A stretch of 64,000 nucleotides of DNA from Tubulanus polymorphus. Its lineage: Eukaryota; Animalia; Nemertea. The stretch lies in NCBI RefSeq assembly GCF_964204645.1, contig NC_134028.1, forward strand, positions 2,232,001 through 2,296,000, written 5' to 3'. Below the pieces are notes generated by a model. It searched no databases. It was given only the letters and a program-made list of their open reading frames with translations, and had not been told where the DNA came from. Positions 5,701-46,078 of this stretch are shown piece after piece (within the stretch, counting starts at the first letter, position 1; each line of letters begins with the position of its first letter). The translations under genes and the position numbers were made by a program.

Positions 5701-8064
5701 ATCATTTATCAGATGACTGAGGGGTCCTTGATGGAACAGGCCACGTAGTGTCCACCCAGCACTCAATAAAATCTCGCTTCTTACAAAAAACAGTGCTGCC
5801 CCTAGTGGGCATGTGCAAAATTATCTTATATCTATTGTGCACCTTTTTGCTAAATTATCCATAGAATCATTTCACCTTATCCTTAATTTCATTTACAAAA
5901 TTATCCAGCTAATCGCAGTTATGTATGAAAAGTGTTCACATTTAACCCGGTGTTTTAGGCAGCTAGCTAACTCTCTAAATCGCCAAGCTGATGACTAGGC
6001 AGCAGTCATAGTAACCACTTACTGCTTGCATGCTTCATGCATTTATTACACAAAGGCCTTCCACACGTCGAAAGAAATGGCATTCAAATAAAATGTATTT
6101 AAATTGGTGTTTAGTGTCAGTGGTTTTATATACGTATTGTTTATATTTGGAATGTTATTTGCGCTTGGTCTCGATGGGATGTTTAGTGAAGTAGTAATAT
6201 AACTGTATTTTGTTTCACTGTTTATGTTCGAAAGTGTCTATAATCACAGCAGTTTATCAGTGAAGTCTGTATGGGTTGGAGGATGGAAAGGCCTGAATGA
6301 GTTCTGAAAAAGGAGCTCGAATCAATAGAATGAAATCATTCCGAATTGTATCTTAAGAAGAAAAGACTTAGATATCAATATTCTCAAAATGGGTCATTTT
6401 GAATTCTTTATTAAGATTTGACAGTTCTTCATGTGATTTAGTGTGCTGGGTGTTCCTCATGGTTCTGTTATAAGTCCCCTATCGATAAAGATATCTCAGT
6501 TTGCTTTTCTCAATCACAGTACACGCACCAATTCAATTAATACAATCTACTCTACCATAAGTTTATACCAGTATCCATCCAATGTTATCATATGATTTTA
6601 AGTTTAAGTATGAAACTTGTTTACGAATGAAGCGATTAAACTCGAAATAATAATTTGCCTAATTGTTTATTTTGATCTAGATATTTTAAGAATGGAGATG
6701 ATTAAGTCGTCTTGATAAAAACTTTTTGAAAAAGTAACCTAACAGATTTTGTAATATATTGATGTTCGCATGTTTGATTATATTTGGTGCCATTTCTTTC
6801 TGTTGTTTCTCACTATATTATAGGAGGATGAAGTGTGAAGGTTTGCCAATCTGTGTTGTATAATTCGAAGAAAAAAATAATTTTTTGGTTTTGTTTTGAG
6901 CATGAAAACTTTGGTCTAATAATGTATGTTTTTATGCAAATTAACGCCAGTTATTGTCAATGTGTCGATAGAAATAATGCCTGCAGTTTCAAATTTTCAA
7001 AATTTCAGTTAAAGGCATTTGTTGAATTACCAGAGATTTCATGCTCTATTCGTGTCGTGTTCAATCATCTTTTATTAATCTTTGCAAAGACCAGTGAAAA
7101 CTGTCTTTAGTGTTTGCACTCTTTTAATAAACACTCACGTGAAAATGATTTGACAAATTATCTATTTTATTAACAGCATCTTTTAACCTTAGGAATATCA
7201 TTCCCGTGAAATTAAAAACCCACATTCTTCTGTTTGATTACCCATACTATAATATGGTTTTGAGTTGTTTTTGGACGTAGCCTAGTAATTAGTGCCCAAT
7301 TGTCCTTTCATTTTAGATTTAGATTTCAGTGAAATTATGCCTACTCGTATCATTTTTGAAGATTGAAGATATGCATGTAATTTGTTTCAAGTTTTCTTAA
7401 AGATTTAATTGAGGCATGTTTAGAAATGATTTTAACAAGTTATTTCAATAGTATCATATATGTTGCTGCATGATTAGAGCAAATAAAATTCTCTATTCGT
7501 TTAATCATGTTTTCAGAATCGTATTCCAAATTCAGTTACTGATTAAAACACATTTCTTCAGAAGATCAATATGTATTATTCTATCGCATTGATACTCACA
7601 TCATCATTAAACGTTTTACTCTATGAGAGATTTATTTGCTGTCTTAACCCCTTCGCTACGTCAATGTTTGTACTCTGGTCTGCTGGGGTCCCCAGGTAAA
7701 AAGATAAAGCAATTTGAATAGAAAAAATAAAACATTTATCATTGACACAGTGAAAGGGTTAACCTTCAGTGTTTAAAGACGCAATAATTTAGTATATAAT
7801 CTTTGCTGTTAAAATCCGAAACATAGAATTAGGCCTACGTGTCTGCATTTGAATTACAAATGATTTATTTCATATTTATACAAAAGAAGCAAAATTACTT
7901 CAGCAGCTAAATCATGAATTTATATTGATTTGTTTGGTAAATCTCATTAGTATTTGTATTATATGTATTTTTGTTGATTTTTTCAGTACGGTGATTTCGG
8001 TTATGAAGATCATTACAACAGCATTTCACGAATGCGCGGAAATAACGCGCCTGTCGATGTTTAA
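2706..8064 (+). CDS. TTYH: 3' exons of a probable Tweety-family (TTYH) membrane protein; partial, gene starts upstream of the window. Exons 2706-2747, 5562-5673, 7987-8064
   Basis: Three AG/GT-bounded exons with compatible phases (2-2, 2-0, 0-stop) translate as SPPRSPRNKGPYLSGTGTSGRFSPGMRLPGSTRHTGPEHLPLHGRQTPPPAYGDFGYEDHYNSISRMRGNNAPVDV*. EHLPLHGRQTPPPAY resembles the TTYH2/3 tail as I recall it (ENxPLIGRxSPPPxY). Only the tail is visible. Confidence 0.55.
3772..4326. mobile_element. Nested MITEs: outer element with CAGGGTGGCCACT-type ends, inner element 3875-4204
   Basis: Inner TIR is CATGGTTCCCACAG / CTGTGGGAACCATG. Outer ends CCGGGTGGCCACTT...AAGTGGTCGCCCTG resemble copies at 13751-13908 and ~54444-54632. 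Confidence 0.6.
4774..4884. repeat. 37-bp minisatellite, 3 copies
   Basis: CTGGTAATATCCGGAAATATCTCAACTGAAACGGCTT occurs three times with one substitution. Confidence 0.95.
7648..7758. mobile_element. piggyBac-like mini element with TTAA target site
   Basis: TTAA|CCCCTTCGCTACGTCAATG ... CATTGACACAGTGAAAGGG|TTAA: imperfect 19-bp TIRs with CCC/GGG ends and TTAA on both sides. Confidence 0.65.
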
Positions 8065-11000: not shown

Positions 11001-11923
11001 ATGGATCGACTCAAAAGATTTAAAGCCGGAATGCAAGAATTTAAGCGGCCTCAACTAGCCATGCGGATCAGATAAGACAAGAAGTTATCCATAGTGTTGG
11101 GCTAATATGAATTATATCAAATTTTTGATTATATCTAATAGATTCTAATCATCCAATGCTACAGTGCAATTCAGACCTTGCAAATCTACAGTCAGTGGTC
11201 ACCACCGCGGTAAACCCATGACACCGTCCTCACACTAACTCCAACAGGGTCTGTCTTCATTATCTGCATCCAATTTTGAACCCTTGTGAGCCAGATTGAT
11301 CAGAGTTCAATGCTGAATGTAAACTCTTCCACCGTTTAACTGCCGTGTGAAGAGGATGGGCGTTCTTTAACTCACTCTACCCGACGCACAGAGGTATGAA
11401 AACCAGAACAAATTAATTAAAATTTATTCAATAAATTATTTTATTTTCAATTTTTAAATACATGTACAATCTATTGATATACAACAACAATGTACATAAT
11501 CAGGTATAATATTTACATTTTAACATAAATCAATAGTTTAAATTCAGACTAGAATATTTTCATACAACAATAAATATTTCTTTCTGTATCAACTGACCAA
11601 GATTTCACTGAGCGAAATTGGCAAATTAGAGGCAAAATTCTCATTTAGTGTCACACTTTTAAGGAATCGACAAAGTCATGACAAAAACAGATCTCGAAAA
11701 ATGCAAAATACGAGCTAATGCCAGCGTTACCCTAGTACGTTCACATCATAAAGAAAACCCAAGTTCTTCACAAGTCTTTCTCTCAAGAGTTATTCATAAA
11801 CCATTGGAGCAAAAATAACTCCAGCTGTAAGATCGTAATAGGAAATGCCTTTAAAACGTCTCAGTAAGGTTTTCAGGAACAATGTTGGTTATTTTTTGGA
11901 ATGATAATACAAATTGGAATATC

Positions 11924-14900
11924 TTAATCGGTGCTGATGAGATCCCCGCTGATTTGAGGAACCTCTCCAGCGACCTCGCCGACCTCTTCTAACTCGTCGT
12001 CGTCGTCCTCGTCGTTAAACTCGTTTGATTTATCGTAGGTGAACGTGCTGCGGGACAAATCGACCTCGATCGGAAACACATCTGCTTCTTTCAATACCGA
12101 ATGACAATCCGTATGATATTTAGACATCGCCGAAACGAACCGCTGCAACTGGAATACTATATCTTGTACTGAAAAACAAAAACAAACAACAGAATTCATA
12201 GATGTTCACTTGAATGGTAAATTTCTCGATATCCCTGTAAGTCATAGTTTGTAAGTCATATTTTAACGGCTAAGTTGCACTAGGATTTGATGTCCCAATT
12301 ACGGTAAATCTAATGGCTTAAAGTCACATGTCAATCTTCCTGTTCTCAGCTGATATCTAAACTGTATCATACGCGTACCATGTTTTTGATCTAACAGCTC
12401 GAGTTTAACGAGAACGTCACTTCTCATCTTGGCAAATCGTGCTCGAGCTTCTTGTCGGCAACGTAGAATCAATCTAAAATAGAACACAATCACAGGTTTA
12501 AGTCGAGGCAGCTGAGCTCATAATGATGAAATACCAATCACTTCTTAAATACATGTATTGATGAATTTGATGGTACCAGTAGGATTCCACGTACCTGTAT
12601 TCATAGTTTCCAGTCTCAACCCGATACAGAGGTTCCTGTAAGGCCGCGTAGCTGTATTCTTCATCATCCATTTCTTTCACTTTCAAACAATACGACTGTT
12701 ATAAAAAAATAAAGAAAATGTAGTATAATCGAGCTACCCAGAAACTTATGCCTACCTTAACCTTCAAACCAGCCACTACTTACCAAGTACTCAAACTTTG
12801 CGTCTAGATATTTCTTGATAGTTAGTCTTGTATCAGGTACAGCTTTGTTCAAATAAGTGTTCAGATCGCTGATCATCTAGAAAATAATCTCACAACCTTC
12901 AAAATCACATGAAATTAGCCACACTAGCAAAGAAATTAGTTAATCTAATTCGCTAATTCGTTTAACTAACAAGCAATCTAATAGCAATTAAAACTACTAT
13001 ATACAATTTGCATTTCACATTGATAAAATATGTGCAGAACAGAACACAAAAATATAACGAAATCAAACTAGATGATTTTAATAAGGCTGAAACATCGAAA
13101 ATCAAAATGAGACCACATTGCGAGTCAATGTTCAACTTCCGCTCAAAAGAAAAGGCTTGATTTTTTAATCTTCTCTCCATAACAACTCCACTCATTTATC
13201 TTATTGATTAATCTTTGATTTCTACTAAACTCATATAGAATTTCAGCAGGTAATAACACGACATAGGGTTTCACAGAGACATAGTACTTCAAATAGCCAA
13301 TTATTGATGCTACAATTCTTCTACAATGATCCATATTTCAAAATGAATCATTTCATTCCTAGAATAAACTTCATCTATTTGAAATACTAGCACTAGTTTT
13401 ACCAGGATCATCTCACCACACACAGAGATAAGCCATTTACGGGTGAGTTTATATCGGAATCGGGAAGAGTAGGAGATACGAGAAATTCCCGCCGGTTGAG
13501 AGTGAAGAGCGAGAGAGAGAGAGAGAGAGGGGGGAGAAACGATTCTTACAGGTTTACATTTCTTTAAACAGCTAACAGCGAATCGTTCGATATCTCTGTG
13601 AGCGTCACCGAAATGTGTGAACGCTTTACTGGCGGCGGGTTGTGGTTCGCGTACCCCAATAGCAGCGAATACATCACCAAACGCTGTAAACACAGTAAAA
13701 AACAAAATAATAAAACAATCGCACTAAAAATATCAACTACACACATATAACAGGGTGGCCACTGTTCCCTCACTGTTCCCTGAATCCAATCAATTAACAC
13801 AGTCAAATATGTTAAGACATAGACGGAAACTGTTTGATTTTAAGCGCCACCTGCAATCGCAACAACTTTCCATGACTTTTCCCTGATTTCTATTTAGTGG
13901 CAACCCTGTATAAGAATGTACATGGAGCCACTCATAGTCCAGTTCATATCATATCATTTTAACATAAGGCCTGATTCCAGAGTCAAGTCAAAAATGGGAA
14001 TATATGTATTGATTGATTTCCAATCATCATGCCTTATCTCTGATACTGAATAACTTCACCTATGGGTGGCTCGATGTTTAGATCTAACAAAGAATAACTG
14101 ACAATCCGACAGTAGTGTGCATGTGAATTAATTTCAACAGGCACCCAGTCGTATTGTCAATACTGATGATAATGTACAGGGTTTTCACGAAAAATGTTTA
14201 AAACGATTCCTTGTTAAACTATTTTGTGAATACGGTAGATACATCCTCTTTGGGTTAAAACGAAGAGCAGCAAATAAAAATACATCAAAGCTTTCAATAA
14301 TTCTATACAGGAGAATTTGGTATTAATTAAGCGATTTTCAATTCAACCTTTAAATTACTCTGAATGCACCTATTTTCCAAAGATGTGTGCCTGATGAAAC
14401 ATCTGTATCTGCTGCTCTCTGGTCTCATAAACCCTAAATTGTCGAAGCCGGCTTCATTGGTAGGGGGAATATTCTCGCATTCGGATGAAGAAATTATGAA
14501 TAGCACACTCAGAAACACAAATCAGTCTTAATCAGCTCTTGCAGGGAAAACGATTCTAAGAAAATCAACTAAACGTGTGCATTACATGAAGTTAAAATAT
14601 GGTGACAATTCATAAGTGCAACACTTTTCGCAATAGTCTTTCACACGAAAACAGGGTTCATATTTCCCATGTTCTGAATACACGGAAATCAATTAGGAAT
14701 TTATGAAGTTTGTTTCAAATACAGCGATGAATATTCAATTTGTGTCACGAACCAAGACAACATGCCAATCAAGGACCGTGACGATGATTAAAGGATTTTA
14801 GAGCAAATGGTATTCAAGGTCTACAATTGACCCATTCCCAAGGACTTTGAAGGACCGCTATGAACCGTACAACAACATTCCCATCGCCTGGTCGAAGTCG

Positions 14901-17900
14901 CGATGAAAATCTACAGTGCGCAACTACTGCAGAAAGTGTAGCACGAGTATTCAATGCAGGATCTCTTACAGGTTTAGCCGTTTTCAGCAATCGAATAGCA
15001 AATTTCTCGATATCCCTGTGAGCATTACCAAAAACAGTAAATGCTTCACTCGCCACAGGCTGCGGCTCTCGGACACCGATAGCCGCGAATACGTCTCCAA
15101 ACGCTGAAAATCATTACATTCAAACAAATAGAATTAGTAACAGACAACCTGACTCCATGAAGTCAGTAGACATCCCAGATTTTCCTAAAATTGATAAGAT
15201 TTCGATTTCCATTATTTTGGACCATATTTTTGCGTAGTCAAACTAGCGCTATTACCTTTATGCGTTAACGACAGTTCGAAAAATGCCTTCAGTAATTTTT
15301 TTGTATGTTCCATCAGACCTTGATAGGTTCCCGCTACTTTTTCGAGTTCTTCTAACTTTTTCACCAATCCATCTAAACAAAACACAAAAAGTATGTCGAT
15401 GCCCAATCACTTTCGTCCTTAATTTACTGATTTTTTCTGATAAGACATATTCATTGAAGTACACTAAATAGGCTATTATGATAGAAAAAAATACAAACCA
15501 TTGCACAGAATAGCACGACTGAGACCAAGAGCGTCAGCAGTACCGGAATTCATTGTCTCCACAACTCTATGTTTGACCTTTTTTAGAACTGGAAAAAAAA
15601 TAGTTGAGAAATATTTTTGTGCTCGCTTTATATTAGAACATATAAGTAGATAGATATAATCTTGGAGTAATCATTTGTCACTCCAAGGTGTAGGCCTAAT
15701 TGAGATATGATGTTTAATCTGAGATGAGAGGTGATGCTCCTTCATCTGGCTGAACTTACTGATGTCTAATGTTTTTCCTTGTTTAGGATCAGCATGTAGT
15801 TTGTTGTATTGAATAGTGACATCTCCCTAAATTCAAATACATCAAACAATTGTAACTAATAATAACTACCAATTCACTTTACTCCAGCTAAGCAACTGGT
15901 AATAAAAACGTACTTTAACCGATTGGATCATCCTCGCGACCTCGACTTTTGTTCGACCTTTCACGGATTGACCTTTGACGCCAACGATTTCGTCTCCGGA
16001 AGCAAGCGTAGCATCCTTCGCCGCTGGAGTATTATCGAACACTTGAACGACGTATAAACACGGGCACAAGGGGGCGCCACCGCCAATACTGATACCGATC
16101 AGATTTTGAGAATCTTTGACGAGAGTGACCGAACCTGAGGTAACGGTCATACCCCTGAAAATATATGAAACACATCCTGAATCATCAATCTATACGAACA
16201 TGAAAAAAAACTGTTTATAAATACCGAGGACATTGTTCCACGCGTTTAGCTATTTCCGTGGAGCGGATTTCTAAGTATTTTGGCATTAAATCCATCACGC
16301 TTGTTATATCACTATATACCGGGTCATAATGGTGCCTGTAAACTGTTATTATGCGCTAATAAAGCATTACTAATGAAAACCAATACAATGGAAGTAATAC
16401 GTTTTCACAATATGTAGCCCAACCTATATTTCTGGTCAGACTAACAAATGTCTGGTTCAAATGTTCCAGTGTTTAACCCTTAACCAGTTTGTTGTTTGTG
16501 ACATGGTAGACCTAATTATTTTTCATAGGCCTATTTGGTTTGGTGTCATAAATTGGTGACATTTCACTTTCCGATTTTCGCAGTAACATTTTAGTGGTTC
16601 TTCAGCTATTTTGGCTCTAAACCAGCAGATACGAGAACTGGTATAAAAACCTCTGCCTGGTTTGCCACGTTAGCAAGCTGTAAAATGTTCTGAAATAATG
16701 TCAATTGTTTGGGAAAAATCACATGAATATTTCAAGTTTTGCAACTGTCCTATGGCTGAGAGAACATTGGAAATTTGCTATAAGGCCCAAACTTCAAAAA
16801 ATTCAACTATAGTTTAAATTTTAAGACTTTTAATGATGAAATGATAGAGAAGCCGATGATTTTACATACAATGTGCGAATCAACTAGTGATTAATCAATT
16901 TTCATATATGCAAACTTCTGCATGAAAGTTACACCATTCAACAGCTTGTTACAAACAGCTTCCCCATAGCTTGTAGACCGGTTTCTATCTCTTCATGATT
17001 TTCTCAAAATAATTATTCTAATAATATGTTGTCAAAACCATTTGAGGAATTCTTAGGCAAAACTGGCTAGGGGTTTATTTACTACCATAATTGAACCTCG
17101 GCACCAGCTCTGAGCAAGTGGGCTTAAAAACTTGAATTCTATCCCGATCAATGTCGTCAATTCCTACCAACTTCTTAAAATTGGATTGTTTTTCACAAAG
17201 AATTTTACAAAATCTTAAAAGAATCCTATTGTATCAGCAGACATAAACCCTGTGCTACATCGGGATCGTTGCATTCAAATGAGACTTGGTCCTAAATGAA
17301 CGAAAAAACTTCAGATACATACATATCATCTTCCCAGGGAAGTTGTTCATATTTTGAGGTCGGTGATAATCGATCCATATCATAGGTAGGTACTGGAAAG
17401 TATCCATCATAATGATAGTCGTTGTAATCCATTCTCGGTTCAGTTTTTATTATAGTAACACTGGCAATATGCTACTACGTGTCACAATAAACTCATCTAG
17501 GGTAGAGTACATCCATCCGCTACACGAGCGAAAACCAGATTTGATTTTCAATGGTTAGCTATGAATATGCACCGTGCAACAATAAATCAAAATGTTTGAA
17601 TAGCTACCACAGGTAGACCACGACACATCCACTAACACAAGTCAGTTCAAAGGACAAAAACAACTGCTAATGAACAGTTAGTAACACTTTTTTATCCAAT
17701 GAATGGTAGGTAAAATGCTTTGTGTAACTATCCAGTGACAATCCAGTAACTGACTAACAGTCGAACACTGTGTACGATGTTGTGTATCAACCGATGTCAA
17801 CTTTCAGGTCAATTATCATAACAGAATAAACTAACAGTCACTGTCAGTAGAGGAGATATATTCAACCAATACAATATGTAGCAGTTGTTAGATTAAATAC

Positions 17901-19890
17901 TATGGCACAGCTGAACGAACGAACAGCTATAATGTGGGTTGAGAGGGGCGTAGACATTATTTACCGCTGGATATGAGAACAGCTGCGAAATCAAACAATC
18001 ACTGGTGACAGTTGGACGACCCCCCAAATAGACTAAAAGTGAATTGCTTCATGGACCGATAAACAAGAACAACCCATGAAAAAATGCCTATAGGCCTATA
18101 TATATTCATGTACTATGCTTGACCTTATAATTCACTTACCAAATTAAAGGAAACTTAATAAGTGGAATTAGTTTCAGTGTTACTTAAGCCAATCAAAAAC
18201 TTTAAATCAGTCCTCGAGTAATTAGCTGCACTAATTAGCTAGAATTAGTTTATTTTGTCTAATTAATTAGAGGTAAATATCTGTGTTACCTTAAGATTAA
18301 AAGGATTTAATTTGGGGGGGGCCAATTGTCTGGGGGGGGCAATTGTCCAGGGGATACCGTCCGGTATTTCTTATCTGAAGCCAAGTGCACACAGACCGTA
18401 AAAAACACGAAATAATGAATAAATTGACAATTTCTTCTTGTAGTCAATAGTCATCTTGTGTTCTCCTTCGTCCATTTATTTTCGATTTTTCAATTTTTCA
18501 AATTCCCTCATTAAGATGATTTTCTTTTTTTAATTTCTTAAATGAATATCTTAATAGTCTTTGAATCAAGAATGGTTAGAGATCGGCTAGTTTTAAGCCT
18601 AACTACAGGTGTTCTTGAGACCGCAGACAATTAGATCGGATCTTGACTTTAGTGACCTTAGTTAGGCTTTAAATTGAGTGATTTTTATGACTGAGCTAGA
18701 CCTAACTGATCCAGGGTCCAATCTAAGGGATGAAAGTCACTTGCCCAGGGGGCAAGCATATCTGAAATTTGGCTTGCCCCCCTCCAAAATTTACTTGCCC
18801 TACACAGGCAGTCCGATTGGTGGCACTATCATTCGTTGTATCGAGTGGGAAAAAAGCTTTGTGACATAAAATTGCACTAGCCCGGGGGACAAGTGATAAT
18901 GATAACCTACTTGCCCTAATGAGAATATACTTGTCCCGGGCAATCGGACAAGTGCTTAGATCGGACCCTGCTGATCCCATTTAAATTGCTTACTGAGTTC
19001 CCATTCGAACAGCATACTAAACTGAATAAGTCGATTCAATCTCCCAAACAAACACGGCAATTCATGTGACGCTGAGCTGTATCTACGTGAGTTCACCCAG
19101 TCCGAGTGGCGCCAGTTCACGACACTCCCTATACTGCATGTACTGAGAGATTGCATGATATACCATCACTAGCACTAAGGTTCTTAGTAAAAACAGTGAC
19201 TAGAGAGATGCCGATTTCGTCCATGTTATACTACAGTGGACAAGTGCAGTGGTTTAGAGCTAAAGACATATCATCGCCATCATCATTGTCAGCATTAGAC
19301 GAGAAGATTCACAATATCCGTGTATGATGATAACGAGAGAAATCCCACAATAACGAAGCCAAGAAAAATTCTATATCAGAATGATTATGTTTGAGGAATA
19401 CCTGATGATGGCTTACAGTTGTTAGCCATCATCAGGAGTACTGAAGGCGTACTGTATTCTATCAGTACGCCTGATGATAGCTAACAGGTGATAGCTGAAA
19501 CGTCGCTCCTCAAATATAATCATTCTGATATGGAATTTTTCAATCTTGGCTTCGTTATTGTGGGATTTCTCTCGTTGTCATTGTCAGCATTTCACAACTC
19601 ACTCATAATTCTAAGTTCTACAGTTCCTAATTAGAATCTTCAACATGATGAATGAAGGGAACTTAATCGTAGGAATAAGGGCAAGAAAGTGACAATTAAT
19701 AAAGAAAATTTGAATTTGAACAAACCCGGAAGTGAAACACGGAAGTAAATTGACGCTATTTTTTACACAAACGGCTTCTAAGTTAAATAAACATAATTTC
19801 AATGAATTAGGACCATATTTCGTTACTTCAATGTTTATTCTATTCATCTATCGCTTACATTTTATCCTCTTCTAATTCATAGTCCATCAT
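11924..19890 (-). CDS. PICK1: PICK1 (PDZ + BAR/arfaptin-homology protein). Exons 19859-19890, 15914-16154, 15760-15826, 15499-15588, 15256-15372, [14970-15103 or 13550-13683], 12784-12876, 12595-12695, 12379-12473, 11924-12168
   Basis: MMDYELEEDKM-GMTVTSGSVTL..NLIGISIGGGAPLCPCLYVVQVFDNTPAA (PDZ); ADALGLSRAILCND; LNKAVPDTRLTIKKYLDAKFEYLSYCLKVKEMDDEE; YRVETGNYEYRLILRCRQEAR; acidic C-tail. All introns are GT-AG and the phases join. Confidence 0.97.
13550..13683 (-). CDS. PICK1: PICK1 alternative exon 6B (134 nt), paralogue of 6A
   Basis: (A)FGDVFAAIGVREPQPAASKAFTHFGDAHRDIERFAVSCLKKCKP; acceptor ttacag, donor gtaag; same length and phases as 6A. Confidence 0.92.
13751..13908. mobile_element. Small MITE in the PICK1 intron just upstream of exon 6B
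   Basis: CAGGGTGGCCACT...AGTGGCAACCCTG, with TATAA on both sides. Confidence 0.7.
14970..15103 (-). CDS. PICK1: PICK1 alternative exon 6A (134 nt)
   Basis: (A)FGDVFAAIGVREPQPVASEAFTVFGNAHRDIEKFAIRLLKTAKP; acceptor tttcag, donor gtaag; phase 1 to 0. Confidence 0.92.
18712..18970. mobile_element. MITE with CAGGG termini; partial second copy at ~63625-63716
   Basis: TIR CAGGGTCCAATCTAAG / CTTAGATCGGACCCTG, with CTGATC on both sides. The 3' ~90 bp (GATAATGATAACCTACTTGCCCTAATG...) recur near the end of the window. Confidence 0.8.
19297..19577. mobile_element. Fold-back insertion, probably derived from a Penelope-like retroelement end, with 14-bp TSD
   Basis: TCATTGTCAGCATT at 19283-19296 and 19578-19591; ~70-bp inverted arms at ~19325-19397 and ~19507-19580; internal CTGATGA...GAAACGTC motif. 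Related fragments at ~45433-45551 and ~51866-51918. Confidence 0.7.
19463..19510 (+). ncRNA. Minimal hammerhead-ribozyme-like core
   Basis: CTGATGA (19471-19477), T, stem AGCTA/TAGCT, GAAA (19497-19500), CGTC. Stem I is only about 2 bp in this copy. Confidence 0.5.
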
Positions 19891-29100: not shown

Positions 29101-32100
29101 TTAGGGATTTATTATTGGAGAATTGGTATCCACCGTATGCTTTGTATGTTGTAGGTAGTGATACCGAGATGCCTATTACTACTGACGTTGGTGGAGTTCA
29201 CATTCAGTTTGCAAAAGGTAGAGATAAATCAGCAGCAGCTTGCAGCACGCCATGCATTCATTGAGTGAATAGTGTCATATTCCTCTGGGTTAAACGTGCT
29301 AGCTTCTTCATAATGAACGTAATAGGATTTTATATTTACTGACCAGGGAAGATAGCCTTTCATGATGGCTATCTTCATACTTAAACCTAGTTGAGATTAT
29401 TTTAGAAACTAAAAAGAGAGAACATATAGCCCACTAGTCATGCTATTCATTCCATTCTCTAGCTATTTTGGTATATTGTTAGTATCACAAGTCTCCACCA
29501 GCCGGCAGCACATTCTAATTGTGTACAGGTTTGCACGAGAACTTCCCAATAGAATATCTAAAGCCTGGAAAAGGTTCCTAGAGGAAGACTAGAATTTCTA
29601 TCTATATTCTTTTATTATTGAAATTTTGATAACCATTCAATATCTTGCATGTGTCTTTATGAAAAGAATTGTTTAAATGCTCGGATATGAATAGTAACAC
29701 TTGGTAAAATATCTTATTTCAAAATTAATTTGAAGCGATCATTTTGCTGCTGAAAGTGATATTTCAATGAATTAGTAGAAAGTAATTTCCATAATATTTC
29801 AGATGAGAAAATTTCATCAGAAGAAACAGAGCAGACATTGAATAAGATGGGACCTAATGATCCGAGTTCAGCTATTATCAATGGGGATATTATTGAGTCA
29901 AATGGCACCGGTGATGCCACTGACAACGTTATCAAGGGAAAGGACTTACAAATTATGACAAAGTTAACAAATGGATGTTCAGAAGGATCGTTTGAATCAG
30001 TTGGTGCAGTGAATTGTCTAAGTGAAAATACGGAACATAAAGTGAATGGTTTAGATGATGGCGGTAAAACCAGTGAAGATGTTTTGGCTACAGGTGAATC
30101 AGTGGCTGTTAAGGCAAGTTCGATAGAAACCGTTCCTCACAGTCCTAATACGCAAGATGAAGAAATTGATGAATTGTTGTTGTTGTGTGAAAATAGCATC
30201 ACGGAAACTGGAATAACCGTCAGCCCATCGGAGGATAAAGTCTTAGACAGCGGCGATGAAGAAATGGCTGCAGATTCCCCGAAAATGTCTAAATCGAAAA
30301 GTGATCATGAAAATGATCAGAAAATTGATGTGGATCTAGAAAATGAAGAGAACCTGGCTGATAAGGATGGCGATGTTACTCAGAATGATGAGGTAATGGG
30401 CGCCGATGATGAGGTTATGAATGGAAACGATACCGATCGAATCATCGAAAAAACGTCTGAATCGAAACTGTTGCAAATAGAATCAAAATTCGAAGCATCC
30501 GGAAAATTGACGGAAAGCTGCGCGAACAATGGATTATCGGAGTCAAATAAAATGACTCATTGCACTGATGATTCAATGAATGATGGCGATGAAAATGTAA
30601 ATACAGATCTTCCTGGTTCAGTTAACGACAAAGGCGTTGATAATATTCAATTGTCGGACTCAATCGAGAATAACCGCGATGTTGTTGAAGCAGGTAATTC
30701 CGATACGAAAATAGATGCTGATGATGCGAGTGTCGTTGGCGTCGACGATTCACAGAAATCGCCCGACGAAATTTACGAACGAACGATCGGCGACGAAATC
30801 AACGCGATCGTGAACGGATCGAAAGATGAAAATGCATCGCTGAATAATCCCGGTGAGCAGGATGTGTTAGAGGTCGAGATCGACGCCGAAAGCGAGTATA
30901 ACATCATCGAATTCGATGATACGAAATTGGACTGCGACTCGGTGGATGAAAACGTATTGAAAAGCCCGCCGCAATCGTCGGACGATACCGAATCGTCCTT
31001 TCCGAAGTCGACGAAAGTTACGGAAGATGAAAACCTGATTCTGGACGAAGGAGATGACGAAAACAGTGCCATGTTTTCTTCGAAGGACTCTTCGTTGTCG
31101 TCTAGTTGTAAAAGTAAATCATCGTCGGGCGCTCTGCAAATCGGTAAAAGTTTTCGCGACTCGTTCAAATGCGTCGTGGAAAACGCGCTCAACCATCTGT
31201 CGCAATCATCCGGCGACGATTCGCAAGTTGAAAAACTCGCGCCGGATAAAGCGTCGAATGAACCGGTCGTATCGGATGTACGGGTTGCATCAACGACGAC
31301 GACGGCAACTTCTAGAAATTCAGGAAATTTGTTCGAAAATATGTCGTCCGCTCTGGTGACGTCTGCCGAGCATTCGGTAGTGAAGGAGGATGTAGTTGAA
31401 GATACGGTGGATGCTGCTGATAATAAAAACGAAGATGAGTCAATCATAGAATTGAATCAGTCGGAAACATTGAGCACTAGTAAAACGGATAACAGCATTC
31501 TGATATTAGAAAATAGTGATGAAGAGGAAGTTAAAGGTAAGAATCTCGCTTTTTTTGTCAGTTGATTCGGTTTTTGAAAACTTCATGACGTTTTTTCTTC
31601 ATTCATTACTTCAGACGATACTGGCAATAAAGAAGTAGGTGATGATGAAAACATTGGAACCAACAAAGATTGTAACCAGATAACCGATGCTAGTCAAAGC
31701 GATGCTGTACGCAAACGAGTTGCATCACCCGAGGCGAATGAACCCGAGGCTAAACGTATGAAAGTCCCTCCGCCTGACGTGAACGATGCAAATTCTCAAC
31801 CAATGTCGGATTTCAGTTCAAGTACGGAATCCGTACCTGTTTCCGATGGCTACGAAGCTATGGACACGTCAACGGGAACTTCCGTATCTAATGATGCTCG
31901 GACAAATAATGGAACGGACAGCGGAGATAAACCACAAAATAAAAAGGTAGTTTTAGATATCGGCTTCTACATGCGTTCAATGGATAATAAATCATGTCTG
32001 CATTAGGTCAAGATCTGGATTAAACAAATTCAAATGTTTCTTATTCTTGCATATTTGTAGGACTTCGAAGCATTCATGCAAGCTAAATTCAGTTTGTACC

Positions 32101-42053: not shown

Positions 42054-45000
42054 CTAACATCCTTCGAGTCTATTATTATCTGTCTTCTTTCCCCAGACCT
42101 GTTTTTCGAACTTTAGCAAACTTTTACAGTACGTATTGCCGAGGTGCAAACAGTTTCTTTTCGATTTCACGAGATCTATCGCATCTTTGAGACTCAATTC
42201 CTGCATGTACATGATCGCAGCTACAACTACTGCCCCGCTATGAGCATTTCCATCCTGGTGACAATGCACCAAACAACAACCACCACGTTTCGCACTTAAA
42301 GCGTCCGATACAAAAAGTACAGTCGAATTAAAGTGATTGAAAGGGAGTTCTGATTCGTCAACTTTTAGATATTCTACACGTCCCGGAAACGCGTTTCCTA
42401 TTTCAGTAGAAATATTAACGGTGTGAGTAATTGACAAATGTTTCAGAACGTCCTCGCTACTAGCGTGTTCATCACTACCGAGATAAAGCTTTCCATCTAA
42501 AATCTCCGATGGATAAGTTATGATCGAACCACCGTCGTCTTGCGACGAGCGACACATAAAGCTAAATTTCGCGCTAAATCGATCAAAGCCTTGATCCAGA
42601 ATAGATGGTTTTAGTGCCCGGGCTCGTAGGGCGTCGACAACCAGAGACAAACGACTATCTGTTAAATCATACGTACGTCCGTTTGCATCGTAAACTATGA
42701 TCAACGAATCATTGAATACAGAAAATTCGATGCCTTCGGAAAAGTCTTCGCTACTTATCGCGGTTTGGACGTGTTTTTTGACGAACGCATCTTCGTCTCG
42801 ACTATCTATAATGATTAACTTTTCATCTTTCGTTGCTTCGACGTCGTTCAATAAGTTGTACAGGTTAGAACAGGATATATAGATCGGTTCGTCTGACAGA
42901 CCATCGCTTACATCATCATCCGGATTATTCCACGGATGAATACGATCTTTAATATCGCCAATCGAAGTCCTGTTTGAAATGCAACTCGCTGAAATTAAGA
43001 AATATCGATGAGTAGTTATCATCAAAAAGACTTTAAAAAGATTGGAACAACATCATCGAGAAATGGAAATGAGACCTTTTCTATCTTTGACGTCGACGTC
43101 ACTTTCGCTACCGTCATCGCCCTGCAATAGAAAAATATTACTGCATCGTTTGTATACCTGATACCATTGCACTATGTAAACAGATTTTTTCCACGCAGTT
43201 TCATACCGAATGATTAGTCTTTGCGTTGTGATGCCTTATCACTTTTACATCTCCAATCCCATTTCTGTTAGAGTGTTCACTATCCCCAGATTCGAGATCT
43301 TCCCAATCGCGTTCTGTTTTCTTCTTGCTTCGTCCAAAAAGTCCTAACTTTCTCTTGTGTTTACTGGACGATTCTCGTTCGTCGTCGCTTTCGTCCAGAT
43401 CATTGCCCTTTTTCTTCGTCTTCTTTTGCTTTCTCTTATCAGAAGCTCCGTCCTTATCTGAACCACAATCAGACTCTGAGTCACTATTTCTACGATTTTC
43501 TTTCTTTTTAGATTTTTGCTTCCCGTCTTTCTTGTCTTTCCTCTTTTTATCTTCATCGCTTTTATCTGCGTCCTTCTTTTTTGACCACTTCGACCTTTTA
43601 CTTACTTTCCTCTTTCGCTCTTCATCTGAACCTGAATCATCGGAACTCCCATCTTTCTCTTCCCTAGACGACCTTACTTTAGACTTTTGGTTTTCCTTAC
43701 CAATATTTTCGTATCCCTTTTTCGACTTCTTTTTTTTATCTTCGTTGCCGTGCGGTTTACGCTCTTTTTTCTCATTAGTTTCCTTCCGTCGTTCTTTTTT
43801 CATTTCGTTAACAGATTCGTCTTCGCTTACACTTTCTGACTTTTTCTTTTTTCCTTTCTTTTGATGATGTTTTTTTTTTGCCTTACCTCTATTGACCTCA
43901 TCGCCGTCGTCGTCATTAGAATAATCATTTGTGTACCTATTCAGATGGATCACTTGTATCTCATCTTCGAAAATGCTACTACTTCTCCCACTCTTTCCCG
44001 ATTTAGACTTGTCCTTCTTTTTCTTGTCTTTCATTTCCTTCTTTGCTTCCTTTTTCTTTGCTTTTCTCTCAGCTTTCTTACTGTCATCTGCCTTATCTTC
44101 GAATTCACTTTCAGATCCTGCTTCAGAATCAGTGGCCTGTTTCTCGTTTTTCTTCGATCTGTATTTCAATCTTCCAAACAACGAATAACCTTTAACACTT
44201 TCTAAATGAGCATCCCTTTTGTCTTTAACAGCGCATTTTTTGGTCTTCGCGTCCAATCTTGTTTCGTCGTCGCTTTTATGAGAAATTGGCTCACTATCAT
44301 CGTCATCAGTGGCGTCATCGTCACCATTATCATCTTCATAATCCTTTACACAGAACAGTAGTCTCGGTTTTCCCATGTCAGCTGTAAAGTTAGCAGTGCT
44401 TTCATCGTTACTCAAATCTTTAACTTCACCTGTATCCGTATCTTCTGCTTCATCCAGAGACGCATTTACAACACCCAACCCCTGCATCATTTCAACGCTA
44501 GGCCGAACGTAACGCTGCGAAAAAAGTGGTCGATCTTTCACGGCTGCTGTTTTGTTCTTCTTCTGCATCAGATAGTTTCTAAACTCTTCATTTGGATTAG
44601 TAAGGTGGCTGAATTCTTCCGGCTCTGACTCGGACCCGTTGCCGTTTTCACCAGCCTGTACCTGTTCTTTCTTTTTACGTCGTTTCCAAAACGGAACCTT
44701 TTTCTTTGCATTAGTTTTAGAAGCATCCTTTGATTCTTTTTCTTTGCTTTTTCTTATTTTACTGTCATCGTCACTTTTCCCACTATTATGGCGACTTATT
44801 CCATTTTTCTTCGAGGAGCATTCGTTGTCACTTTCTTCATCATCTCCATCTTCGTCTTCTTTATTTTTCTTTTTCTTTTTAATTGACCATCTTGATTTTT
44901 TATCCTCGGGTTTATGTTTTGACGATGGTTTCTCATCTTTATCTTTATCATTCTTTCTACTTTTTGACGATCTTTTACTGGATGTCTTATCCTCATTTTC

Positions 45001-46078
45001 ATCATCAGATCCGACGTAACTTTCTTTTCTTCGCAGCAAAGACCATCTTCTTTTCGGGTGCTTTTTATTTTCGTCAGTATCCTCCTGATCGCTGCTATTG
45101 TGTTTCAAGTGTTTAGTGTGTGAATCGCTTTTTGGTCTTTGTTTTCTTGTCTTCTTCTCATTTTTCCGCGGTGAGTCTTCGCCGCTCTCAGTTTTGGCTC
45201 TCGGCTTGACGCCATTTTCGTATGTTTTATTACTCAGTGCTGGACTCAGTTTTTGCGAGCTGATGAATACAGGAGTCGATTCTTGGTCTCCTTGATATGA
45301 CTTTTCACTCTCAATCGTGTCGCTCTCATCATCTGAAGGAATTATTTGTATTTCTTGAATTTCACCGCGCTTATTCCGCCGTCGTAATCCCCGGGATTTC
45401 TTCTGAAAGAGGAACAATTTTCAGAGTAAGTCGATAAGATACACAATATCCGTAAGGTGGCTGTACGAGAGAAATCCTACAATAATTCAGCCAAAGAAGA
45501 AACATATATGAACTTTTTTGGCTGTATTTATTGAGTGGGATTTCTCGCGTGAAAATGAATCATTCAGCTAATTTCTTTACAATCTACACCTTATTCAAGA
45601 TAACCTGCAGCGAACAGTCAAATTCAAATCTATGCGTGTGAACAAGGCATCAATTCTTAAAATCTATATTCAATAACTCAGTTCGTTATTCACCGTGGAA
45701 CCGGTATTTGGTATCGAAGTTGTTAAAAATTGGGGCAACATTCGGTCGTACATTGACACATATGAACAGAATTCTAATTCAAAGTCTATAACAACACGAG
45801 GCGTGGTGTATGTACCGTCATAGAATTCAAATCAAATTGATTTGAGTTCTATGGTACCATATAGGTAATTGAATAATTTAACGGTTACATTATATTTACA
45901 TATCAAAAGCAAAACCGTATAGGAATATTTAGATTAAACTGCAATTTGACATTAGTATACTAACTTCTGTTCCTCGATATGAGATGCGAGGGCTTCCATC
46001 CGAGTGCCCAGCTGCCGTTTCGAAAATTCCTGATTTGGGGAACACTTTCGGAATCGCATTTATATCTGCATCGGCCAT
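42054..46078 (-). CDS. Rhodanese + dual-specificity-phosphatase-fold protein (STYXL1/MK-STYX-like, probably inactive) with a long K/D/E/S-rich N-terminal region. Exons 45965-46078, 43207-45402, 43076-43121, 42054-42988
   Basis: LIIIDSR..F.KKHVQTA and ILDQGFDRFSAKFSFMC (rhodanese/CH2); YPSEILDGKLYLG, LSITHTVN, CLVHCHQDGNAHSGAVVVAAIM (DSP). The four exons join in frame (phases 0,0,1), about 1095 aa. Confidence 0.75.

Follow-up and report, generated by a model that had tools for sequence, protein, structure and literature searches.

The PICK1 gene of Tubulanus

The DNA analysed here (the window, a 64,000-nt stretch of the Tubulanus polymorphus contig NC_134028.1) carries a gene for PICK1, an adaptor that bends membranes, on its minus strand (Table 1). 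The predicted protein combines Pfam domains PF00595 and PF06456, i.e., a PDZ domain at the N terminus and an arfaptin-type BAR domain after it. In a structure search, PICK1 PDZ chains were the sole matches at E 1e-10, and the BAR part matched arfaptin 1i49 by both fold and profile. There was no solved PICK1 BAR structure among the PDB matches. Domain order and motifs are the same as in mammalian PICK1, which has AP2, dynamin and ICA69 as partners. With motif positions taken from PMC5626541 and PMC7873044, the FxDxF motif for AP2, the basic equivalents of K251, K252, K257, K266 and K268 and the acidic tail are all present in both Tubulanus isoforms. The segment encoded by exon 6 corresponds to mammalian residues 186–230 when anchored on FGDVF. 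It belongs to the PF06456 domain, in line with the preliminary description, which had placed it in the PICK1 BAR domain.

Table 1. Features of the PICK1 gene, in positions of the window.
Feature	Positions	Strand	Remarks
e1a, alternative first coding exon	19859..19890	-	Short acidic N terminus; matched by loose end of spliced contig
e1b, alternative first coding exon	17323..17432	-	Longer N terminus; start of isoform X1
Exon 2	15914..16154	-	PDZ domain
Exon 3	15760..15826	-	
Exon 4	15499..15588	-	
Exon 5, constitutive	15256..15372	-	Donor common to A and B
Exon 6A, upstream copy	14970..15103	-	Nearer family consensus; e1a+A equals RefSeq isoform X2; two allele differences, both synonymous
Exon 6B, downstream copy	13550..13683	-	The more derived copy, having Lys20 (in place of Glu), Cys39 and Lys42; e1b+B equals RefSeq isoform X1; in spliced contig
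(CU)n tract	13511..13529	-	About 20 nt past exon B donor; candidate splicing element
Exon 7, constitutive	12784..12876	-	Acceptor common to A and B; equivalents of K251, K252, K257
Exon 8	12595..12695	-	
Exon 9	12379..12473	-	
Piece of exon A in intron 9	12212..12245	-	34 nt, same strand
Exon 10, last coding exon	11922..12168	-	Acidic tail, stop

Our model with e1b and exon B is an exact match to RefSeq isoform X1 (XP_074647383.1), and the model with e1a and exon A to isoform X2 (XP_074647384.1), both named PRKCA-binding protein-like. Hence, the A/B pair was already present in automatic annotation. The preliminary description missed this annotation as well as similar swaps in PICK1 of other animals, and was silent on the two alternative first exons. 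We found no publication on the Tubulanus PICK1 exon pair. This kind of splicing is already known, and by itself the Tubulanus pair is an unremarkable splicing event that annotation already included. The fragment of exon A in intron 9 scored 46, whereas none of 30 shuffles exceeded 30, and it matched exon A better than exon B (46 versus 22).

Divergence and splicing of exons 6A and 6B

Exons A and B are 134 nt each, are bounded by AG and GT, run from phase 1 to phase 0 and share the same open frame, which reproduces the coordinates, peptides and frame given earlier. They align without gaps over 147 nt at 72% identity, with the copies 1420 nt apart. Residues 1–16 of the segment are identical in A and B, while 10 of the following 27 residues differ, and exon B has gained cysteines at segment positions 39 and 43, as had been described. 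Across the first 15 full codons there are 11 silent differences and no replacements; along the whole exon, 26.5 of the 30.5 synonymous sites differ. The resulting values of pS (0.87) and pN (0.13) differ strongly (Fisher p 1.5e-13), although this comparison between copies reflects past constraint rather than current use. Because synonymous sites are saturated while these first codons are free of replacements, the duplication must be old and both copies must have been kept under selection, as the preliminary description had proposed. Judging from these sequences, exon 6 of PICK1 is an old tandem duplication with both copies intact.

Might the two copies instead be haplotypes of one exon that were assembled in tandem? 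Among the listed contig pieces of the DNA-like run X1, none covers both exons. Yet, exon A and exon 5 lie together on one contig, the flanking introns of A and B are unrelated, and alleles differ at few sites. Chance or haplotype duplication is excluded by the extent of synonymous divergence, together with a depth of 29–30 in the exon-bearing bins of that run, which is like that of the flanks and indicates single-copy sequence. An assembly artefact is therefore exceedingly improbable.

Inclusion of either A or B yields a full-length protein of 404 or 430 aa, depending on the first exon. In line with the earlier expectation that both or neither would break the frame, inclusion of both exons gives products of 266/292 aa and omission of both gives 196/222 aa, with early stops located 306 nt and 248 nt upstream of the last junction, respectively. 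Nonsense-mediated decay would be expected to remove both kinds of transcript.

Expression of exon B is apparent from a 1108-nt spliced contig with a depth of 198.5 in one public run, which joins 13683 to 15256 and thus connects exon 5 to B while skipping A. Its length fits exactly the sum of e1a, exons 2–5, B, exons 7–9 and 88 nt of exon 10. This combination of e1a with B is a third one, absent from both Tubulanus RefSeq records that we found. None of the listed runs is recorded as RNA, and this run was treated as RNA solely on account of that splice. Junctions of exon A were seen in none of the five listed public runs, of which X5 contributed no contig; since assembled contigs lose minor forms, this is no evidence against A, the inclusion of which rests on the RefSeq model of isoform X2. 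Of the junctions proposed earlier, all four coordinates were right and 15256>13683 was recovered from a public run, but 15256>15103 and 14970>12876 did not appear in these contigs. The proposed either-or use agrees with the two RefSeq isoforms and with a B transcript that lacks A. It is likely that A and B are spliced one at a time.

Exclusivity could be enforced in several ways. Steric hindrance by a branch point near the upstream donor is rejected, as the intron between A and B is 1286 nt long and the AG-free zone before B spans just 38 nt. Incompatibility of U2 and U12 sites is rejected too, as every donor is GT with a U2-like context. For pairing between docking-site and selector RNA, the best intronic duplexes were no better than shuffles (as good in 9/30, 2/12 and 5/30), and the intron flanks of A and B are without residual homology or long complementarity. 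Possibly, exclusivity reflects ordinary regulated competition between two U2 exons. The pyrimidine tract of B is the stronger one (16/20 versus 11/20 in A).

An alternative explanation might be that B has taken over, and that A was silenced recently or is very minor and has not yet decayed. The sole spliced contig uses B, the pyrimidine tract of A is the weaker one, and Val17 and Asn27 of A occur in 0 of 101 homologue segments. However, RefSeq models an A isoform, the splice sites and frame of A are intact, both of its allele differences are silent (albeit at 2 sites only), and the absent A junction is uninformative for the reason given above. We consider a silenced A unlikely, and very probably A and B form a functional either-or pair.

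Location of the differences in the BAR domain

According to the structure model, exon 6 would encode the end of one helix (171–220), a turn and the start of the next (224–303). Of the 10 A/B differences, a helical wheel places 7 on one flank of helix 2, 1 on the opposite flank and the remaining 2 in the core. The excess on this flank over the opposite one (7/10 versus 1/10 positions) gave p 0.02 with a grouping that was picked after inspection. The changed flank is likely the central convex side, an assignment that comes from simulation of a mammalian homology model and not from coordinates of the Tubulanus protein. In these coarse-grained simulations, as described in sections of PMC7873044, the C-terminal tail lies on the central convex face, where it touches residues 206, 209 and 210. 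Residue R197 of mammalian PICK1, which also lies inside the segment, has been modelled at the contact between PICK1 and ICA69 (passages of PMC8884907).

The A/B swap leaves the AP2 motif and the known membrane lysines unaltered. FGDVF (187–191) binds AP2, according to part of PMC5626541, and the common first 16 residues would preserve this FxDxF motif as well as the turn between helices 1 and 2. The five known membrane lysines all lie in constitutive exons 7–8. A direct change in membrane binding, as suggested in the preliminary description, is therefore doubtful. The swap would rather alter helix 2 on one side, close to the dimer centre, where the acidic tail has been modelled, giving two BAR domains of equal length that differ at the central outer face and at two core residues of helix 2. 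Because the changed face adjoins the modelled tail site, the swap would adjust, according to cell type, autoinhibition or the choice of partner (self or ICA69), and not lipid binding as such. Granted a functional either-or pair, we regard such tuning as an evenly balanced proposition.

The new cysteines of B had been suggested to be palmitoylated or redox-sensitive, which would alter membrane anchoring. They lie one helical turn apart and adjoin lysines, and oxidised PICK1 PDZ dimers in the PDB offer a redox precedent, albeit in a different domain. Yet, on the helical wheel both cysteines fall within the hydrophobic stripe on the core side of helix 2 at both angles tried. These columns are hydrophobic in homologues (Met/Leu; Val/Ile/Ala), and Cys at 43 already occurs in 3/101 homologue segments. 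Cys is more simply read here as a small residue in a buried place. Palmitoylation is unlikely because both cysteines occupy predicted buried positions, and a modified anchor of either kind has very little probability in our view.

A further possibility is that both exons are used but yield equivalent proteins, each copy having become the standard form for a particular tissue or stage, with amino-acid differences that are tolerated drift. This would be consistent with the nearly equal net charge of A and B (+1 versus +2) and with the variability of several differing columns across animals; 3 of the 7 flank positions (17, 24 and 38) vary freely among homologues. Lysines at both 20 and 42 are also found in an unrelated PICK1 exon (L054), and a single exon 6 suffices in 16/16 other intron-bearing loci. 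Conversely, B alters the near-fixed columns Glu20 (99/101 homologue segments), Thr42 (99/101) and Ile37 (97/101), and its Cys39 is found in 0/101. The lancelet alternative described below is identical in four taxa, which suggests that swaps matter there. Profile scores of −66.6 for B and −46.5 for A, against a median of −34.1, are biased towards in-sample homologues and serve as a rough guide. We find functional equivalence of A and B rather unlikely. An old duplication of exon 6, with either-or splicing and tuning of the outer face of the BAR domain, is on the whole the best explanation and reasonably probable.

Exon duplication in PICK1 of other animals

The Tubulanus pair has the same architecture of equal-length homologous exons as the tandem duplicated exon substitutions, or homologous mutually exclusive exons, exemplified by DNM2 and ACTN1 (portions of PMC8373072 and PMC9741552). 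Such exons are used one per transcript, their differences tend to lie at the protein surface and they have arisen repeatedly and independently in orthologues (excerpts of PMC9741552). Published convergent cases, as far as these excerpts extend, are mainly ion channels and transporters, whereas the Tubulanus case is a BAR adaptor. PICK1 is absent from the human catalogue supplement of PMC8373072, in which DNM2 and ACTN1 are present as positive controls, and vertebrate-like PICK1 has one exon copy in the two locus types seen (L037 and L042/L043). This agrees with the earlier remark that the pair was unfamiliar from vertebrates.

A similar swap is found in lancelets. Like Tubulanus, Branchiostoma has PICK1 isoforms of equal length (XP_035694991.1 and XP_035694992.1 in B. 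floridae), which come from one gene and are alike outside the swapped segment; this begins at the same intron, and FGDVF is kept in both versions. Isoform pairs occur in B. floridae, B. belcheri, B. lanceolatum and a hybrid, with an identical alternative in all four taxa. In contrast to Tubulanus, the comparison of these protein isoforms shows 13–14 differences in the first 29 residues and a common stretch of 16 at the end, i.e., the reverse pattern. The lancelet and Tubulanus swaps are probably of independent origin. A tree of 27 of the 103 distinct 45-residue segments resolves neither this independence nor the date of the duplication, because just 1 of its 24 inner branches is supported.

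Other PICK1 exons have been duplicated as well. Exon 9 is present in three copies in the locus of another animal, and cuttlefish PICK1 has an extra copy of exon 8. Two Lineus isoforms share a single version of the segment, and two protein searches with exon B returned no other B-like full-length protein among the candidates that passed (15/23 and 13/21), a result weakened by the word filter. Variants in Nucella and Babylonia lie on different contigs and are therefore paralogous genes rather than isoforms. Partial repeats of exon ends in four loci (L007, L009, L033 and L035) were rejected as exons; they are minisatellite-type in appearance (L007 and L033 inspected).

Such splicing seems to have arisen repeatedly in PICK1, and this recurrence is the chief interest of the Tubulanus pair. 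Tentatively, the BAR exons of PICK1, and exon 6 most of all, may form a hot spot where duplications have occurred independently among invertebrates. The swaps might give each gene two BAR dimers with different partners or different autoinhibition by the tail, and the variants might mark the surface that decides between PICK1 homodimers and heterodimers with ICA69 when secretory granules form. Either-or variants that occur naturally in several lineages would point to residues of about 186–230 as a tunable module, and offer ready pairs whose dimers and effects on liposomes can be compared. Should the recurrence be true, BAR adaptors would join ion channels as genes with repeated exon duplication.

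A probable either-or exon pair in ribbon worm PICK1

The gene is the ribbon worm PICK1. Models of ten coding exons from the window translate exactly to RefSeq isoform X2 when they use the alternative first exon e1a and exon A, and exactly to isoform X1 when they use the alternative first exon e1b and exon B. As a protein query, exon B matched the Tubulanus polymorphus entry PRKCA-binding protein-like isoform X1 at 100% and isoform X2 at 77%; the A/B pair is already present in the automatic RefSeq annotation. These models and an arfaptin-like predicted fold uphold the PICK1 BAR-domain identity given in the preliminary description, and its exon positions, lengths, splice sites and common open frame were all recovered. 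In the 8.5-kb region, A and B rank first among direct repeats (72% identity over 147 nt), and the introns on their flanks, 152, 1286 and 673 nt long, resemble each other no more than shuffles do. The exon pair is real and old, and most likely a functional either-or pair.

Positions of PICK1 features in Tubulanus and other animals
Feature	Position	Strand	Remarks
Exon A	14970-15103	minus	134 nt; AG before, GTAAGA after; open
Exon B	13550-13683	minus	134 nt; AG before, GTAAGA after; open in same frame as A
First coding exon e1a	19859-19890	minus	Alternative; start of RefSeq X2 model
First coding exon e1b	17323-17432	minus	Alternative; start of RefSeq X1 model
Exon A-like 34-nt fragment (20 nt exact)	12212-12245	minus	Intron 9, same strand as A, 2.8 kb downstream
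Exon 9 x3, animal metagenome contig L015	about 5800-5894, 6131-6225, 6307-6401		Intact AG..GT copies
Cuttlefish gene model P0015	after residue about 305		Tandem second block, exon 8-like and diverged
Lancelet (Branchiostoma) isoform pairs, P0083, P0214, P0215, P0216 vs P0218, P0217, P0072, P0070/P0076	first 29 residues of exon 6 segment		Swapped

Selection on both copies had been proposed, and the comparison of A with B agrees: differences fall on 26.5 of 30.5 synonymous sites (pS 0.87, a saturation that precludes a corrected dS) versus 13.5 of 101.5 non-synonymous sites (dN 0.15; Fisher p 1.5e-13 for the contrast). The first 15 full codons hold 11 silent and no replacement differences. Coding allele differences among those listed are likewise all silent (9/9), two of them in exon A. 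Judged from these substitutions, the exon was duplicated long ago and each copy was under constraint. At silent sites that separate A from B, the fragment in intron 9 follows A; it is therefore likely a copy of A made once the two exons had diverged.

The intron between A and B contains a high-copy repeat at about 13780-13880 (bin depth 5536 vs about 30 nearby in the DNA-like run X1). Elsewhere in the window, long stop-free frames lie at 29760-31565 (plus, 601 codons), 42054-43052 (minus, 332) and 43201-45420 (minus, 739).

Proposed exclusivity and transcripts

As had been claimed, using both exons or neither breaks the frame: inclusion of both gives a stop within B, 306 nt upstream of the last junction, and omission of both gives one in exon 7, 248 nt upstream. 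Because these distances exceed that of the 50-nt rule for decay of early-stop transcripts, assumed to be valid in nemerteans, both products would be decayed. Steric blocking does not apply to the A-B arrangement, nor a U2/U12 mismatch to these exons, and no intronic RNA duplex around A and B was better than shuffles. The acceptor of B is richer in pyrimidines than that of A (16/20 vs 11/20), and a CU tract directly follows the B donor. From these observations we infer that regulated competition between the two exons, followed by decay of both-in and both-out transcripts, would be the likeliest mechanism.

Five sequencing runs were listed, none on record as RNA. Run X2 yielded a spliced 1108-nt contig (depth 198.5) that joins exons across seven introns, and one of these joints (13683-15256) connects exon 5 to B and skips A. 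The joint from B to exon 7 is absent from the tabulated ones, yet the contig's lengths before and after B (597 and 377 nt) match it exactly. Since the loose 5' end of the contig is e1a, this transcript is e1a plus B, a third combination beside isoforms X1 and X2. Of the junctions proposed for both exons, 15256>13683 was thus seen at contig level; contigs of runs X2, X3, X4 and X5 over exon A and exon 5 held no A junction, which is no evidence against A because contigs drop minor forms.

Cuttlefish and Lineus isoforms likewise show both kinds of N terminus, and hence the choice of first exon predates, and is more widespread than, the exon 6 pair. The e1a N terminus is similar to the acidic, Ca2+-binding one of mammalian PICK1 (PMC9201945).

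Protein segment affected by the swap

In the AlphaFold model (mean pLDDT 69.8; 86-92 in blocks over the exon segment), the exon runs from the end of BAR helix 1 through the turn into helix 2, of which it takes up the first third. Anchored on the AP2-binding motif FGDVF 187-191 (PMC5626541), it corresponds to residues 186-230 of mammalian PICK1. The first 16 residues are invariant between A and B despite synonymous changes, as originally noted, and contain FGDVF as well as R197, which is modelled, with one other residue, at PICK1-ICA69 contacts; an R197 variant still bound ICA69 (PMC8884907). According to PMC9201945, the PICK1 Ca2+ sites fall outside this exon.

Set against 101 distinct segments from homologues, B deviates at the nearly fixed columns Glu20 (99/101), Ile37 (97/101) and Thr42 (99/101), and its Cys39 occurs in none; A departs at two columns (Val17 and Asn27, each 0/101). 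A helical wheel puts seven A/B differences on one flank and one on the opposite flank. It also places both cysteines of B in the core, where they would be buried, and the suggested palmitoylation or redox sensitivity of B is accordingly weak. In coarse-grained simulations, residues 206, 209 (segment position 24) and 210 touch the C-terminal tail, which lies on the central convex face (PMC7873044); in a SAXS model the tail leaves from the convex top (PMC4454178). The swap would tune the BAR domain's convex centre and dimer core instead of its lipid face. Constitutive exons outside the swapped one carry the membrane lysines K251-K268, and the altered membrane preference proposed earlier is likewise doubtful.

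Apparent recurrence in other animals

Outside subscription journals, no mutually exclusive exons in PICK1 appear in the titles or abstract beginnings of the papers listed, tandem exon duplication in PICK1 gave no match, and none of the listed papers on the Tubulanus polymorphus genome concerns PICK1 by its title; convergent tandem duplication of mutually exclusive exons in amphioxus likewise gave no match, and the sole match on PICK1 alternative splicing, BAR domains and invertebrates concerns endophilin. PICK1 is absent from the human catalogue supplement PMC8373072, which does list the controls DNM2 and ACTN1, consistent with the statement that the pair is not known in vertebrates. Nor does it appear in 10 supplement files of PMC5740500 (without positive control) or in the short supplement of PMC9741552 (15,271 characters, possibly minus its fly tables). 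Convergent exon duplication in orthologues is described as a well-known phenomenon (PMC9741552). The Tubulanus pair, annotated automatically and not found in print, belongs to a known type of splicing.

Among 224 proteins of at least 330 residues, the internal same-gene swaps found are those of Tubulanus and Branchiostoma, both in the exon 6 segment; the remaining rows are a Haliotis form that is truncated and two pairs of cartilaginous-fish proteins, each from different species. Three species and a hybrid share the lancelet alternative segment letter for letter; compared with the main form, it differs at 13-14 positions within the first 29 residues. It affects the same PICK1 segment as in Tubulanus, but to a different extent.

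Exons 5-7 with their introns are covered in 16 of the 57 metagenome loci; each of these carries a single full exon 6, in 10 distinct peptides overall. One of the 16 loci, L015, carries the exon 9 triplet, a candidate three-way either-or cluster by sequence, whose copies differ mainly in charged residues. Another locus (L054, 8001-8132) has a divergent exon 6 that resembles exon B in its two Lys (positions 20 and 42) and in the small residue at position 39. The exon 8-like block in cuttlefish is possibly an either-or exon merged by annotation.

A segment tree was uninformative on the origins of the swaps. Their patchy spread and differing extent suggest that PICK1 BAR exon swaps arose independently. 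What the Tubulanus pair adds is that PICK1 BAR exons appear to have been duplicated repeatedly.
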